Assembly (NCBI GenBank): GCA_963742415.1
Contig: CAVULX010000004.1
Span: forward strand, 1,272,766 to 1,336,765
Source: an uncultured Parachlamydiaceae bacterium
GTDB taxonomy: Bacteria > Chlamydiota > Chlamydiia > Chlamydiales > Parachlamydiaceae
DNA length: 64,000 nt
Reading direction: 5' to 3'
In this document: positions 984 through 11,868 of the stretch, in pieces
How the letters are laid out: each line of letters begins with the position of its first letter
How positions within the stretch are numbered: the first letter of the stretch is position 1
Notes under the pieces: generated by a model
Database searches by the model: none
What the model was told of the DNA's origin: nothing
Seen by the model: only the letters and a program-made list of their open reading frames with translations
Program-made: the position numbers and the translations under genes

Positions 984-1700
984 TTATTTAGCATTAAAAT
1001 TAACAAATTGCATCAGCGGACTACACGTCGATCGCCCCCCTCCAGAATAAGCATCGACGACAACACCCGATTCTAAAAGATAGGCTTTTTCCAGAAGTTG
1101 AGAAGCAAAAGACATATCTTGCGTGGAAATCACAACCCCTTTTCCCCTCTTGCACAAATCGCGTAAAATTAAGGCTAAGCTTTGCGTATTTTGAGGATCT
1201 AAAGCCGATGTCGGTTCATCGAAAAGCAACATCTGCGGATCCAAGGCTAAAGCACGGGCAATGGCGACACGCTGCTGCTGCCCGCCCGACAATTCATTCG
1301 GGTAAGCATCTCCATAAGAATCCATTCCCAACAACTTAAGGACCTCCATCGCCTTGCTTCTGGCCTTATCAAACTTTTCCCCATACACTACTTTCAAAGG
1401 CTGCGCACAATTGTCTTGAGCTGTCAAATGGGGAAATAATGCATAAGATTGTGGAATATAACTCACCAAGTGGGCCCTTTCCGGAGAAGACAAGCCTTTT
1501 AATGATCTCCCTTCATACTCAACAGCTCCTTCGTAATCCCCTTCAAGCTGTGCTAGACATCGCAACAGGGAACTTTTTCCCGCTCCACTTTTTCCTAATA
1601 ATAGAGTGATTTCCCCTCGAGGTACTTCAATTGATATATTCTGAAGGATTTCTTTCCTCTTAGTCCCCTTTGATAAATACAAATTTTTAGTTTTTAACAT
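984..1700 (-). CDS. Polar amino-acid ABC transporter ATP-binding subunit
   Basis: Walker A GKSGAGKS, signature LSGGQQQRVAIARAL, Walker B LLFDEPT. Confidence 0.95.
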   Translation of the reverse strand: MLKTKNLYLSKGTKRKEILQNISIEVPRGEITLLLGKSGAGKSSLLRCLAQLEGDYEGAVEYEGRSLKGLSSPERAHLVSYIPQSYALFPHLTAQDNCAQPLKVVYGEKFDKARSKAMEVLKLLGMDSYGDAYPNELSGGQQQRVAIARALALDPQMLLFDEPTSALDPQNTQSLALILRDLCKRGKGVVISTQDMSFASQLLEKAYLLESGVVVDAYSGGGRSTCSPLMQFVNFNAK

Positions 1701-2358
1701 ACCGGAATCCTTTTTCTAGGTATTTTGAAAGATAATTAAGGGCTCCTGAAATCCCCACATAAAAGAGCGCCACGGAAAGATAAACCACCAAGGGTTCCAT
1801 TTCCCTAGAAACAATATTCATCCCCATTCTTGTTAGTTCCAAAAGTCCAATGGAGGAAAGGATGGCAGTGCTTTTCAACAGCGCATCCAGTTCATTGGTC
1901 AAGGCAGGCAAAACATTGCGCAACATTTGGGGAAAGATAATATGCCTGACACAATCCTTTGTGGAATAGCCTAGCGTCATGGCTGCTTCCCATTGATCAA
2001 CAGGGATCGAATTGATTCCACAACGCACTACTTGCGCAACATAGCCTGAAGAGCAGATGCCCAACGCCAATACGGAAGCTGTAAAAGCTTCCATATGGAT
2101 ATTCAAAATATCGGGAATGACAAAGTAAGCAATGAGCAATTGCACATAAAAAGGGACCGCCCGCAGCACAAAAGTGATCCCCTCCAGGAAAGAAGAGAGC
2201 ACGTTTATTCTTAGTCGATAGCATGTCAAAATCCCAAGGAGAGACCCAAGGCAAAGGCTAATGCATCCAGAAATTAACAAAATTTGCAACGTCATCCATG
2301 CCCCTTTCATCAGAAGGGGCATGGAACGGTAGACGAGGTCTAAATAGTTACTGTCCAC
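1687..2358 (-). CDS. Polar amino-acid ABC transporter permease (HisM/GlnP type)
   Basis: TM helices, an EAA loop (QWEAAMTLG) and a PQMLR motif. Confidence 0.93.
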   Translation of the reverse strand: MDSNYLDLVYRSMPLLMKGAWMTLQILLISGCISLCLGSLLGILTCYRLRINVLSSFLEGITFVLRAVPFYVQLLIAYFVIPDILNIHMEAFTASVLALGICSSGYVAQVVRCGINSIPVDQWEAAMTLGYSTKDCVRHIIFPQMLRNVLPALTNELDALLKSTAILSSIGLLELTRMGMNIVSREMEPLVVYLSVALFYVGISGALNYLSKYLEKGFRYVKN

Positions 2359-2361
2359 TTG

Positions 2362-3132
2362 TTACCCTCCCGCTAAATTCCATTTTTTCTCCAGCTCTGC
2401 AATGACCCCTTCTTTACGCAGCTCATCGACAGCTTTCTTTACCAGAAGAATCAGCTTGCAGCTTTTTTTGTTGAGACAAACTCCATAGCCTAGAGATTGT
2501 TCTAAAGGGGGAAGAGGGGCTTCCATCACTTTTAGTTCAGGAAATTGCTGGGTTACAGTTGCAAGCAAAGAGGGATCGATCACCGTGGCAACCGATTTTC
2601 CATATTTGATTTCCATCATGGCATCCGTTACCTTGTCCACTTGCTTTAAGGCCAATCCCGGTACTTTCTGCAAAAAACTGTCTTGAAAAGAGCCGGCTTC
2701 AGCACAAATCACCATTTTGGGATTATTGGCCATCGATTCCAGAGAAGTGACATTCTCAGGGATCTGTTTCCAAAAAAGCATCGGAAGTGAGGTCATTTTT
2801 CCCCCCTGATAATAGATCATCTCCATCTGCTTTTGTCGATCCTGCGTAATCGACATCCCCCAAATAAGGGCATCAATTTTTCCCTGCTTCAAAGCGAGAA
2901 TCAAAGCGGGCATGCTGCCAAGATCTTTGAGGACCAAATCCCGATTGAGCTTTTTACTCAGCTCATTGGCAAAATCTATATCAAATCCCACATAGTCCCC
3001 CTTTTCATCTAGACTGACATAGGGAGCATAGGCGCTTGATGTTCCGACAACAAAATCTTCCGCAAACAGGGAAGAAAATAAACAGCTTCCAAAAAGGAGA
3101 GTAGAAATTGAATAAACAAAATAATTTTTCAT
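2362..3132 (-). CDS. Amino-acid ABC substrate-binding protein (family 3), possibly histidine-specific
   Basis: Signal peptide, YAPY..GFDID, MSITQDR and C-terminal KKW. Substrate is inferred only from the upstream His-rich leader. Confidence 0.92.
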   Translation of the reverse strand: MKNYFVYSISTLLFGSCLFSSLFAEDFVVGTSSAYAPYVSLDEKGDYVGFDIDFANELSKKLNRDLVLKDLGSMPALILALKQGKIDALIWGMSITQDRQKQMEMIYYQGGKMTSLPMLFWKQIPENVTSLESMANNPKMVICAEAGSFQDSFLQKVPGLALKQVDKVTDAMMEIKYGKSVATVIDPSLLATVTQQFPELKVMEAPLPPLEQSLGYGVCLNKKSCKLILLVKKAVDELRKEGVIAELEKKWNLAGG

Positions 3133-3221
3133 GGTTTTTCCTTATAAATTTAAACTCGTTTAGCAAAAAAAAATTGCTAAGAAAATTAATAAAATCTAAT
3201 AAACTAAAATATAACTTAGAA

Positions 3222-3260
3222 TTTGTAAGACTTTAGAGCGCTGCGCTTAAAGCTTACAAT
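3222..3260 (-). promoter_or_regulatory. Stem-loop immediately after the leader peptide (candidate attenuator hairpin)
   Basis: Minus strand TTGTAAG-CTTTA-AGCG/CAG/CGCT-C-TAAAG-T-CTTACAA, followed by a U-rich tract. Confidence 0.55.
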
Positions 3261-3263
3261 AGA

Positions 3264-3362
3264 TTATGAATGATGATGATGATGATGGAAGGAACGGAAA
3301 GAAAAAGCAAGATCAAGAGATAATTTTTGCTTATAACTAAAATAACACATAATTTTACTCAT
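3264..3362 (-). CDS. Leader peptide with six consecutive His codons (HisL-like): MSKIMCYFSYKQKLSLDLAFSFRSFHHHHHHS
   Basis: Manual translation. GGAGGA Shine-Dalgarno about 10 nt upstream of the ATG, (CAT)6 just before the stop, co-oriented 131 nt upstream of the ABC operon. Confidence 0.75.
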   Translation of the reverse strand: MSKIMCYFSYKQKLSLDLAFSFRSFHHHHHHS

Positions 3363-3403
3363 GGTTTTAAATTCCTCCCATATAAAAGATAAAATTTTTC
3401 GTT

Positions 3404-3610
3404 TTATCTGTTTTTACAACGATTTTCTTTAATCAAATCGATAAACATCTCATAGAGTCTATCTGTTCTTTGTGACTGTTGAGTCATTTTTGCATCAAGG
3501 CTTTGTATTTGAAAATATAGAATACCAAAGCAAGCAATGACTGATGTTAAAATCGTTATCCATTCTATTATTACTGTTCTTTGAATATTCTTACTGTTTT
3601 CTTGATCCAT
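3404..3610 (-). CDS. Small hypothetical protein (single TM plus short coiled coil)
   Basis: 68 aa. Hydrophobic WITILTSVIACFGILYF, then QQSQRTDRLYEMFIDL. Confidence 0.7.
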   Translation of the reverse strand: MDQENSKNIQRTVIIEWITILTSVIACFGILYFQIQSLDAKMTQQSQRTDRLYEMFIDLIKENRCKNR

Positions 3611-8201: not shown

Positions 8202-9296
8202 ATGGTGAACAATCTTTTAAGCCGCACTGTGGATGATTGGACATATTTTTCCATCTCACCAATTGAAAATGTTTACACATTCCACAATCTGTCAGATAAC
8301 CAAGCAAACGGGAAGGAAAAGCATTCACTCTGGGGGACTATTCCAGACACGACTTTAAATCCGCAAAATTTAAGCAATATCTCATCTAACTCTGGAAGCA
8401 AACCAATAGATGAAAAGGTGTATAAATGCTTCATGTGTCAAATGGAAACTATTCCTAAACAACGACGCGGAGGTCCTTGGGGTACAAACACCCTTTGTAA
8501 TCCTTGTGGTACGAAATACGCTAAAAAAGCTTCTCTTTTAAAAGACAAAACAAACCAGGACATTCCTTACATTCCATTAGAATTTTATGTTAAACCTCAA
8601 AAGCATTATTCTTTTATAGGAGTAGGATTCAAAGAAGTGCCTGAATTCTTAGAGGAAATAAAGCAATATTTTACACCCACGAAATGTAAAGAAATCGAGG
8701 AATTAGCAAATAATTTTATAGAAATCGGGAAAAAAACACAGAAATACAAAAAAACTCTTCTAAAAAACACTCCAATAAATGCTGACCATATCAGAACTTA
8801 TGTAGAACTTGCAAGATCCCTATGTGCTATTGAGGACAAATCTAAAAAAAATAGCAGCAATCCGTCCAAAAATAGGGAAAAGATGAAAAACACATACAAA
8901 CTTGTCAGTGAGCAAAAATATGTAGGAATTACTCGAGAAGGTAAGCAAGTAGATCTTGAAAGGCTATCCCCCGATTTGGAAGCAATAGAAGCTTATATAA
9001 TCAGCAGGGAAAAGCGTATTATAGCAACAAATGTTACTGCAAACAGATCCAGAAAAACAGGAACAAAAAGAAAAAAATCTGCTGTGGATTCTGTGAAAAA
9101 GATTCCGCAACGTCGTGACCCTACTGAAGAGAAAACCAATACATCTAAAGAGAAAGCCTCAGAAGCTCTTACTATTAATTCTGAAGGAGCTGCAAAACCG
9201 CTAAGAAAAAAAAGAAAAATTGATTCAGTGGTAGTTTCTGCGGAAAAGACTCTCAGTCGTCATGATCTGAAATTTATTTTAAATTCAGATAAATGA
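8202..9296 (+). CDS. GATA-type zinc-finger protein, paralog 1 (most divergent)
   Basis: CFMC-X19-CNPC with GPWGTNTL, basic RKKRK, C-terminal HDLKFILNS. Confidence 0.85.
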   Translation: MVNNLLSRTVDDWTYFSISPIENVYTFHNLSDNQANGKEKHSLWGTIPDTTLNPQNLSNISSNSGSKPIDEKVYKCFMCQMETIPKQRRGGPWGTNTLCNPCGTKYAKKASLLKDKTNQDIPYIPLEFYVKPQKHYSFIGVGFKEVPEFLEEIKQYFTPTKCKEIEELANNFIEIGKKTQKYKKTLLKNTPINADHIRTYVELARSLCAIEDKSKKNSSNPSKNREKMKNTYKLVSEQKYVGITREGKQVDLERLSPDLEAIEAYIISREKRIIATNVTANRSRKTGTKRKKSAVDSVKKIPQRRDPTEEKTNTSKEKASEALTINSEGAAKPLRKKRKIDSVVVSAEKTLSRHDLKFILNSDK

Positions 9297-9527
9297 CTCA
9301 ACTTTTGAAGGGGGTTTCTCCCCCCTAAAGTTTAGGACGAAAAACTTCCAAATGCTTAACCGCGAATATCGCAGGCATTCAGCCTGGGAAAGGAGTAAAC
9401 TATATATTCTTTTAATTTTAAGAATTTAAACATTACCAGTTATTTTTAATTTTACAAATAAATTATGTTTGATTATTTTTTTTGTGATTCTTTAAACAAC
9501 TTTAACTTTTAATCAAGAGGTGGATTT

Positions 9528-10742
9528 ATGTCCTTTCTCAGTGAACTTGGTAATAACTATAATAATTGGGGAAATTACATCCCTCCAGATTACATGAGGA
9601 GCCCGTCGGACAATACGTCAACAAGCCAAACAAGCACGGGGGAAGACTGTAAAGACATGGGCGCAATGGATGAGTTAAACACTCCTGGACTTGAAATATC
9701 TTCACCGCCTAATTTACATGCCTTACCATGGTTCAATCATGCATTCAGAGCCCTTATAGATAAGGTCGAAACTGCGAATATTATTGCTAGCCTTTCAACC
9801 TCCCCCGCCCCTGTCTACATTAACATGAACATAAGCATGAATTTTCCGAATATCTTTATAGATTCAAACGAAGGCGCAAACCAATCGCAATCCCCAGCTC
9901 TGGAGAAAAAGAGGAAAAGGGTGAGAAAGGAAACAGATAAAAGTCTTATATGTTTCGTATGTTTCAATAAAAAAACACAACAAATGTGGCGCAGTGGTCC
10001 TTATGGTAAGAAAACACTTTGCAATGGATGTGGTCTAAAGTATTCAAAAGAGAGATTTAGACTAATACAAAAATGGATAAAGCACATTCCACTACAATTT
10101 TATGCAAAACCTAAGGGGGTTAAAAGGTCACCTACTTCATTAAAGGACATAAAAAACTATTTTGATGAAAAGAAATTTCAAGAACTCGAGGCATTAACTG
10201 AGAAATATATATCAATTATGAGATCATCCGAAAATCCAAATGCACTAATAGTTGGAAGTGATCTCATCACAGCTTATATTCGACGCGCTAAAAAACTCTG
10301 TTCTGTTGAAGAGGCTGAGCAAACCTCATCTAGAATAGGAGAAGGCACGAGATGCGCTCGGCTAATAATAGGTGAATATACTGGAGCTACCCAGGACGGC
10401 AAAATAGAAGCGCTTCCTGAAGGACTCGCATCAGATGCTGCTGCAATCGAAGCTTATGTCAAATGCTTTACTTTGTATAGTAATAGGGATCGTTGCCCGA
10501 CAGAAGAAAAAATCGAGCACTACAAAAGGCAACTGAAATCAAAAACCCCCGAAACATCAAAAGAACCACAAACTAAAAGGCAAAAAATTGATGGGAGTGA
10601 CATTGTAAGTCCTATTGACGAGATATCCCTCATGCCTGAAGAGCAAATTGATCTTACTGACGAGCCTCAAGCAATTAGAAAGCGATTTCGCTTTTATTTT
10701 AAATTCAATGGCGACTCACTTCCGATAGTCCAGAACCCATAA
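9528..10742 (+). CDS. GATA-type zinc-finger protein, paralog 2
   Basis: CFVC-X19-CNGC (WRSGPYGKKTL), with KKRKRVRK and KRQK. Confidence 0.88.
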   Translation: MSFLSELGNNYNNWGNYIPPDYMRSPSDNTSTSQTSTGEDCKDMGAMDELNTPGLEISSPPNLHALPWFNHAFRALIDKVETANIIASLSTSPAPVYINMNISMNFPNIFIDSNEGANQSQSPALEKKRKRVRKETDKSLICFVCFNKKTQQMWRSGPYGKKTLCNGCGLKYSKERFRLIQKWIKHIPLQFYAKPKGVKRSPTSLKDIKNYFDEKKFQELEALTEKYISIMRSSENPNALIVGSDLITAYIRRAKKLCSVEEAEQTSSRIGEGTRCARLIIGEYTGATQDGKIEALPEGLASDAAAIEAYVKCFTLYSNRDRCPTEEKIEHYKRQLKSKTPETSKEPQTKRQKIDGSDIVSPIDEISLMPEEQIDLTDEPQAIRKRFRFYFKFNGDSLPIVQNP

Positions 10743-10977
10743 TTTCAACTTCTAGGCCGAAGGCTTTGGCCTTCGAGTCTTAAGGTTTGGACGTTTTGTG
10801 AAAAAAATATTTATATTATCGCATCTCTGTCGCCGCTATCGTGTGCATTTATTAAATAATCTAACATTACCATGTATTTTTAATTTTATAAATAAATTAT
10901 GTTTGATTATTTTTGGTGATAATCTATTATTTTATGAGTCTTTAAACAACTTTAGCTTTTAATCAAGAGGTAGATTT

Positions 10978-11868
10978 ATGTATTTTCCCGATGAATTTAG
11001 TTGGTATGTAAATAGTAATTTCTATAATCGGAAAATTTATCCCGATCTATATAACACGGGGGCCCCATCGGACAACACATCAACAAACCAAGCAAACACG
11101 GCGGAAGCCTGTATAAACTTGGACGCAAGGGATGAGATAGACGCTCTCACAGATGAAATATTTACACAAATTATTCCACAAACGGATGATTCACCTTCTA
11201 TCAATCAATTGAAAGCCCTTGCAAGCAATATCCAAAGTGCAGTTATTATTCCTAACCCTCTTCGAACCACCCCTTCTGCCTACATTAACTTGCAACCTTT
11301 TTCGAGTGTCTTTATAAATTCGAACGATGGCGCCAACCAATCGCAGCCTGAAAATTCGGATCGTGATTCAGTCCAGTGTGATTTAACCCAGAAAGAAGTT
11401 TCGCAAACAGAGACTAATTCTAACGATGCCCCACCCATTAAAAAGAAGAAAAGGGGGAGAAAGGAATTAGATAAAAGTGCTTTTCAATGTTTCATGTGCT
11501 TGGACCGAGAGTCGCCTGAGTGGCGCAAAGGTCCTTGGGGCCGAAATACTTTTTGTAATAAGTGCGGTCTACAATATAGTAAGTATGTAAAACTGTTAAA
11601 CAAAAAGATAATTTTGTGTATTCCTTTCGAATTTTATAAAAAACCTTCTTGGGCTACATCTATAGAAGGAAGAATGTTAAACCGCGAGCCTGAATACTAC
11701 GGTCTAGCAATAAAACATCTTCCTGAAAATGAGAAGAAATCTTTTATAGATCTGACTAGCAGCAAACTTGATTTGCATTATATTTTAAATCATCCTGAGG
11801 GAACCGCTGTCACGGAAAGTAATCAAAGGGTGGAGTTTAGACCACGAAGAAAAAAAAAGAAGATATGA
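10978..11868 (+). CDS. GATA-type zinc-finger protein, paralog 3 (shortened)
   Basis: CFMC-X18-CNKC (SPEWRKGPWGRNTF), KKKKRGRK, LDLHYILN, RRKKKK. Confidence 0.88.
   Translation: MYFPDEFSWYVNSNFYNRKIYPDLYNTGAPSDNTSTNQANTAEACINLDARDEIDALTDEIFTQIIPQTDDSPSINQLKALASNIQSAVIIPNPLRTTPSAYINLQPFSSVFINSNDGANQSQPENSDRDSVQCDLTQKEVSQTETNSNDAPPIKKKKRGRKELDKSAFQCFMCLDRESPEWRKGPWGRNTFCNKCGLQYSKYVKLLNKKIILCIPFEFYKKPSWATSIEGRMLNREPEYYGLAIKHLPENEKKSFIDLTSSKLDLHYILNHPEGTAVTESNQRVEFRPRRKKKKI

Follow-up and report, generated by a model that had tools for sequence, protein, structure and literature searches.

A conserved leader peptide ending in histidine codons precedes a predicted histidine importer of environmental Chlamydiota and may gauge histidine through a candidate Rho-loading site

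The window analyzed, a 64,000-nt stretch of contig CAVULX010000004.1 (positions 1,272,766 to 1,336,765) from an uncultured Parachlamydiaceae bacterium (assembly GCA_963742415.1), contains a three-gene operon that unites an SBP_bac_3 binding protein, a HEQRo permease and an ATPase, as expected of a polar amino-acid (PAAT) importer (Table 1). The operon lies 131 nt beyond the end of a short leader ORF, whose predicted peptide is MSKIMCYFSYKQKLSLDLAFSFRSFHHHHHHS. Its six histidine codons are followed by one Ser codon and TAA, and its ATG is separated from the GGAGGA motif by 10 nt. The first-pass annotation had described this minus-strand frame of 32 aa with a GGAGGA ribosome site and a terminal His6; both the frame and the site were found as described, all six codons were CAT, and the frame was kept in relatives. 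The genome (2.69 Mb, 84% complete) was scanned for small upstream ORFs, and this leader was the only one of 1,887 with at least three His in the last 8 codons. The 68-aa ORF directly upstream occurs in a single copy in the genome and may share a transcript with the leader; promoter-like sites, including one at 3677-3648, were at the chance level (3 found vs 3.8 expected). Elsewhere in the window (8202-11868, plus strand), three tandem genes each encode a GATA zinc finger of eukaryotic type (two score over the Pfam cut-off, one under it) and look like genes for host-directed proteins.

Table 1. Leader elements and importer genes, with positions in the window.
Feature	Position	Strand	Basis
68-aa ORF, no Pfam/NCBIfam family, directly upstream of the leader	3404..3610	minus	
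Leader ribosome-binding site GGGAGGA (core GGAGGA 3378-3373)	3373..3379	minus	pairing score -10.2 kcal/mol
Leader ORF, 32 codons, ending in six His, Ser and stop	3264..3362	minus	translated ORF; orthologue conservation
C-rich, G-poor, mostly unstructured block; candidate Rho-loading site over the His codons	3264..3323	minus	base composition (function putative)
Six consecutive CAT (His) codons, predicted sensor	3270..3287	minus	
Long hairpin, 5 nt past the stop codon; candidate polymerase pause or weak terminator	3223..3259	minus	
U-rich spacer including small hairpin 3180-3160 and binding-protein ribosome site AAGGA 3143-3139	3133..3222	minus	
Substrate-binding protein, SBP_bac_3, ArtJ relative (37% identity), remodelled pocket, predicted histidine-binding	2362..3132	minus	
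Polar amino-acid ABC permease, over the TIGR01726 cut-off	1687..2358	minus	profile match; 3' of the binding protein in orthologous loci
ABC ATPase, GlnQ/ArtP-like	984..1700	minus	

The structure model of the binding protein (pLDDT 94) matched class II binding proteins in a fold search, and the best match was Chlamydia ArtJ (34-37% identity, TM up to 0.87), whose entries 3DEL, 3N26 and 3QAX are the closest solved relatives. This confirms the fold; it does not identify the ligand. The protein reached none of the NCBIfam equivalog cut-offs for HisJ, ArgT and ArtJ (HisJ, 59.8 of 459 bits; ArtJ, 63.7 of 510 bits). Mapping of the pocket through a LAO-like protein showed that the backbone-holding residues Y35, S94, R99 and D186 are kept (LAO Y14, S72, R77 and D161, respectively) and that the side-chain pocket is changed relative to LAO, with M74 for F52, W91 for S69, E145 for L117 and T/S32 for D11. 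HisJ has Leu (L52) where LAO has Phe52 (PMC10609312).

Of 400 Chlamydiota genomes, 116 contained a match to the binding protein at E 1e-35 or better. The loci gathered were L001-L160; 91 matches came without a locus, of which 80 were retrieved. After removal of duplicates, proteins shorter than 190 aa and matches below 55 bits, 138 proteins were placed in a tree by a quick method, and three clades were defined on this tree independently of the leaders: one with the locus protein (79 members, support 99), a paralogue clade (16 members, support 80), and a third clade mostly from the small-genome family f20 (24 members, support 85). A leader was scored when an ORF with at least three His in the last 9 codons lay within 330 nt upstream, and dinucleotide shuffles served as the control. 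Leaving aside two rows without upstream DNA, His-terminated leaders were found in 61 of the 77 loci of the locus clade vs 0.7 in shuffles, counts that are not independent trials because the loci are related. A search for conserved His-run frames ahead of orthologous operons had been proposed as a check on the original reading, and its outcome was thus positive. Histidine alone stood out as the terminal residue in this clade; no other amino acid did. In the paralogue clade, Arg-terminated ORFs preceded 13 of 16 loci (1.5 in shuffles), and a His leader was found in none of these 16 loci nor in the 24 loci of the third clade. The His leaders were spread over 8 family-level groups of environmental Chlamydiota, so that such an element is not unusual for the phylum, as had first been supposed.

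The remaining 16 of the 77 loci had no leader adjoining the gene. In one of them (L034), a His leader was located ahead of an inserted gene (~260 aa, no Pfam family) that precedes the binding-protein gene, and extension of 12 of the 16 by 2-5 kb revealed no convincing His leader farther upstream. Two leaderless members of the clade, L217 (G241) and L218 (G269), lie near genes that, read by eye, resemble those for histidyl-tRNA synthetase. In a metagenome sample of 80 loci, from which duplicates and short flanks were then removed, 57 proteins shared the pocket Trp. His leaders accompanied 32 of them, and 15 of the 25 misses belonged to one divergent subgroup (L273-L295). The 15 binding proteins of this subgroup keep the Trp/Met pocket, carry Glu for Asp186 and have no His leader. 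Arg-rich short ORFs before artJ-like genes of f20 (8/24 vs 3.3 in shuffles) were rejected as leaders; they are G-rich and, as judged by eye from the sequence, run antisense to the proline-rich start of a divergent gene.

The pocket of the binding protein varied together with the leader. Among proteins with His leaders, Met occupied the LAO F52 position in 60 of 61 and Trp the S69 position in 60 of 61, whereas the Arg-leader clade had Phe and Ser at these positions in 16 of 16. Because the pocket changes in step with the leader type, the importer likely carries histidine. The acidic residue at the L117 position (E145) is not His-specific, since it is common to 11 of the 16 Arg-clade proteins. 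A hisD gene scored over the cut-off in only 5 of 400 Chlamydiota genomes, and neither hisD nor hisG was found in the present genome at 84% completeness. Taken together, the leader, the pocket and the missing his genes make histidine the probable substrate. Among the closest characterized systems is Chlamydia ArtJ-GlnPQ; its binding protein, although the nearest solved relative, falls in a separate clade from the locus protein, has Phe/Ala-Ser/Gln in the pocket where the locus protein has Met/Trp/Glu, and, unlike the locus clade, is free of His leaders in 24/24 loci. ArtJ-GlnPQ is described as being under ArgR control in some species (PMC2720952). In a distant clade of binding proteins (L024, G000:C4:533430-537089; L012, L014, L015, L022 and L023), a gene read by eye as argR-like stands upstream and there is no leader. 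With this gene in place of a leader, the genome seems to possess a distinct arginine importer under repressor control.

The leaders bear the marks of translated frames. An ATG with a ribosome site preceded 60 of the 61 His frames vs 0 of 61 Ile frames and 3 of 61 Ser frames of the same repeat, and the stop was TAA in 54 of 61 (TAAT in 42); the leader search itself partly imposes the nearness of the His run to the stop. Length ranged from 17 to 50 codons, and the only common features were a Ser/Leu/Phe bias and the terminal run, so the conserved peptide sequence and length of an arrest peptide were not found. The last 16 codons of the 61 leaders included 273 CAT and 37 CAC. In the Arg leaders, CGN made up 64 of 65 codons (CGT 20, CGC 22, CGG 18), and only 8 of 15 had a clear ribosome site. 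We conclude that the leader is very probably translated, as judged from these sequence features.

The RNA beyond the stop codon was examined by folding. The long hairpin of the first-pass annotation, placed there at 3222-3260, proved real at 3259-3223 (-15.4 kcal/mol in a 72-nt segment, z -2.3, 5 of 200 shuffles equally good). The second, small hairpin (3180-3160) exists but is no stronger than expected by chance (z -0.6, 57 of 200 shuffles equally good). The U-rich tract said to follow the long hairpin exists as the U-rich spacer, but it is not directly 3' of the hairpin, and the terminator scan called no intrinsic terminator in this leader. Among the relatives, a post-stop hairpin at z < -2 was detected in 37 of 60 His leaders, and the hairpins started at a median of 9 nt past the stop with a median of -11.6 kcal/mol and z -2.75. 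In constrained folding, the hairpin was as likely with a ribosome placed on the His codons as in free RNA, its probability dropping in only 1 of 47 leaders. For this reason no antiterminator can be assigned, and none had been apparent in the original inspection. A search of 10 loci including this one against Rfam gave no match at the gathering score. Thus, the leader shares with the hisL type a short ORF with a start, a ribosome site and tandem His codons before an operon, but the classical hisL-type attenuator was rejected, for there is no antiterminator, no terminator in this leader and no Rfam His_leader match.

The base composition of the leaders was distinctive. In both the His and the Arg type, the stretch between about -60 and the stop is C-rich and G-poor and is followed by U-rich RNA. 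At the present locus the 60-nt block contains 17 C, 3 G, 29 T and 16 YC dimers and is mostly unpaired in folding, and equally skewed windows account for 0.04% of the 179,338 in the genome. Across the His leaders, C was 0.31-0.37 and G 0.05-0.09 in the last 45 nt; after the stop, C fell to 0.12-0.19 and the spacer was ~50% U. The preference for C over G exceeds the needs of the encoded peptide: the non-His leader codons held 204 G vs 322 +/- 10 and 644 C vs 530 +/- 14 expected from synonymous usage, as drawn from the codon usage of the binding-protein genes. Unstructured, YC-rich RNA with C in excess of G carries the published marks of Rho-loading sites (PMC12121999). The rho gene itself is present in the genome (TIGR00767 over the cut-off, 701 bits).

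A mechanism consistent with these features can be proposed. When histidine is plentiful, the ribosome would read through the His codons and be released at the stop, leaving the C-rich block bare; Rho could then load and terminate the transcript, either in the region of the hairpin and the U-rich spacer or soon after the start of the first gene. When histidine is scarce, the ribosome would wait on the His codons and cover the block, so that Rho would be blocked, transcription would read through, and the binding protein, permease and ATPase would be made. Given the size of a ribosome footprint, a ribosome stalled on the His codons would cover most of the block. On balance, we lean towards this account, in which the leader would be a histidine gauge that switches the importer on in scarcity through a stalled ribosome covering a Rho-loading site. 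Histidine sensing by the leader is likely; the Rho step is the best explanation but unproven, resting as it does on base composition and the exclusion of other switches. The model was preferred because the switches considered fail, the block carries the published marks of Rho sites, and rho is present. The comparative evidence likewise favors the suggestion of the first-pass annotation that a His-sensing leader controls a polar amino-acid ABC importer by a non-classical, possibly Rho-dependent route. The gap from the stop to the first gene, only 34-45 nt in some loci, counts against Rho.

The hairpins bear on an alternative in which a histidine leader operates without Rho, its hairpin serving as the intrinsic terminator or pause; the position of the ribosome or its coupling at the stop would determine if the polymerase halts at the hairpin and U-rich tract. 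In its favor, 25 of 60 His leaders combine a hairpin of -8 kcal/mol or better with at least 5 U in the next 8 nt, compensatory changes were seen at 6 of 11 hairpin pairs in one subgroup of 13 sequences (the present locus lying outside it), the canonical terminator pattern was found in 11 of 61 leaders vs 1.35 in shuffles, and a ribosome placed at the stop codon weakened the hairpin in 7 of 47. Neither the significant hairpins nor the canonical terminators are required by a pure Rho model. This reading is nevertheless unlikely, since 50 of 61 leaders are without the canonical pattern, no antiterminator was predicted, the Arg leaders of the same design are mostly hairpin-free (z < -2 in 2 of 15), and the selection of C over G inside the ORF is left unexplained. 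Translational attenuation, in which the pyrimidine-rich leader end, when not occupied by a stalled ribosome, would base-pair with the ribosome site of the binding-protein gene, appears rather improbable. Pyrimidine runs are able to pair with purine-rich ribosome sites, and the mycobacterial polycysteine leaders share the outline with a codon run at the C-terminus (10.1101/834739). Against it, pairing of a leader with its own downstream ribosome site was no better than with those of other loci, either for His (59 loci, permutation p 0.98, five loci with doubtful starts left out) or for Arg (n=12, p 0.71), and masking of the His codons in folding freed the site in only 1 of 59 loci.

Control of RNA stability, or control of the opposite sign, would have stalling uncouple the ribosome and expose the U-rich spacer to a nuclease or to Rho, or shield an RNase site. 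The spacer is indeed rich in U, the Arg codons of Salmonella speF orf34 steer Rho and RNase G (PMC6386406), and in C. trachomatis, ribosomes stalled at Trp codons reportedly favor downstream Rho termination, an effect of opposite sign that speaks against the preferred model (PMC7755916). We consider such control decidedly improbable, since the C-rich block lies under the stalled ribosome and not beyond it, and since an importer shut off in starvation fits poorly with auxotrophy. The codon run might also matter otherwise than as a sensor, the (CAU)n repeat being a protein-binding site or the peptide acting by metal binding or arrest, with codon sensing incidental. Runs of His bind metals, and CAT makes up 273 of 310 His codons in the leaders vs 53 of 90 in the binding-protein genes. 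This is very improbable indeed, for the frame, start, ribosome site and stop are all kept, in the paralogues the run is replaced by Arg codons whose third positions vary freely, and the peptide varies widely in length and sequence.

The Rho-covering reading can be compared with known leader systems. The hisL leader of E. coli and Salmonella (Rfam His_leader, RF00514) and the Firmicutes His attenuators (PMC9413887) likewise have a short leader with tandem His codons ahead of histidine-related genes. Unlike in these types, the His codons of the chlamydial leader end the ORF, no antiterminator is predicted, and the target is an importer in organisms mostly without his genes; a canonical terminator is absent from 50 of 61 leaders and no Rfam match is found. 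In E. coli tnaC, a ribosome held at the leader end blocks Rho loading, and the proposed block of Rho by a ribosome is shared with the chlamydial leader. TnaC is, however, a conserved arrest peptide that senses free Trp and induces a catabolic operon, whereas the chlamydial peptide is not conserved, a shortage of charged tRNA would be the signal, and the putative Rho site is located within the ORF. In Salmonella, speF orf34 has regulatory codons in an upstream ORF (Arg, as in the Arg leaders) and an interplay with Rho, but it encodes a conserved peptide of 34 aa, belongs to a long and structured leader, involves RNase G and controls a decarboxylase (PMC6386406).

The closest outline is that of the actinobacterial Cys leaders, which share a codon run just before the stop, no terminator switch and a pyrimidine-rich sequence nearby. 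These were proposed to be Rho-dependent, with tnaC named as the model (Seliverstov 2005, PMC1262725), and those of M. smegmatis proved to be translational attenuators (10.1101/834739). The Cys leaders are themselves leaderless and base-pair with the ribosome site downstream; the chlamydial leaders, in contrast, have their own ribosome site and the pairing was negative. By analogy with this history, in which a Rho proposal later became translational, the Rho step suggested here can be wrong. In summary, the leader resembles hisL in the thing sensed and tnaC in the proposed Rho block, and it fails the defining tests of either family.

Leaders with other terminal residues were also observed. The genome-wide scan for terminal runs (at least four of one residue in the last 8 codons) was not exhaustive, because it missed the brnQ leaders. 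About 140 nt before one brnQ-family gene (L205, G000:C1:40791-44924) is a Thr-rich upstream ORF with a ribosome site, MKRAKCHKSPIFTSVLSTRTATATTGRGRTSTR, and the 15 nt past its stop are nearly identical to those of the Val leader of the paralogue L204, suggesting a candidate threonine sensor before a threonine importer. The other two brnQ-family genes, L204 and L206 (G000:C3), have a Val-run leader and an Ile-rich leader, respectively, the latter with a GC-rich hairpin and a U run. A pattern search for His leaders in 401 genomes returned 42 matches, of which 30 were read; 28 were rejected as not convincing, one was a known orthologous locus, and one lay before a methyltransferase gene. This last leader (L196, G326:C8:4063-7084, minus strand) is built in the same way and ends in HPFHHHQ; what follows it is not a transporter gene but a lone 392-aa methyltransferase-like gene with a weak, below-cut-off match to Methyltransf_23. 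Five complete-looking his operons (L169-L173 with L162-L166) have hisI-hisG-hisD directly behind a purH-like gene, the names having been assigned by eye. No His leader was found in the 1.7 kb ahead of hisI in these five; the operons begin inside a longer operon.

Comparative attenuator surveys by Vitreschak in 2004 and Lopatovskaya in 2010 reportedly describe, for other phyla, His leaders of transporter or synthetase genes. Within the literature searched, which excluded subscription papers, no description of His or Arg leaders in Chlamydiota was found, and none of the five Protochlamydia candidates in the PMC2965389 supplement is annotated as an amino-acid binding protein. The trp operon of C. 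trachomatis is described as being without leader-peptide attenuation (PMC7755916). The element is a real, conserved leader peptide and would be a new form of ribosome-mediated attenuation. We tentatively propose, as a possibility that falls somewhat short of probable, that environmental chlamydiae possess a phylum-wide, undescribed attenuator in which the sensor codons are themselves the Rho-loading site without any RNA switch, the run (His, Arg, Val or Thr) being exchanged with the transporter substrate so that each leader would read out what its transporter carries, and that the present locus encodes the chlamydial histidine importer.

Chlamydiae rely on their hosts for most amino acids, and the locus is a candidate route of histidine uptake in a phylum in which hisD is so rarely found. 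Conserved leaders on importers across the environmental lineages would show how intracellular bacteria gauge the amino-acid supply of the host, and also that the small-genome family has no such leaders at the corresponding locus. The element would be a minimal test case (~230 nt) for attenuation by a ribosome that covers a Rho site, and the swap between His and Arg may offer a way to assign the substrates of unannotated transporters from their leaders.
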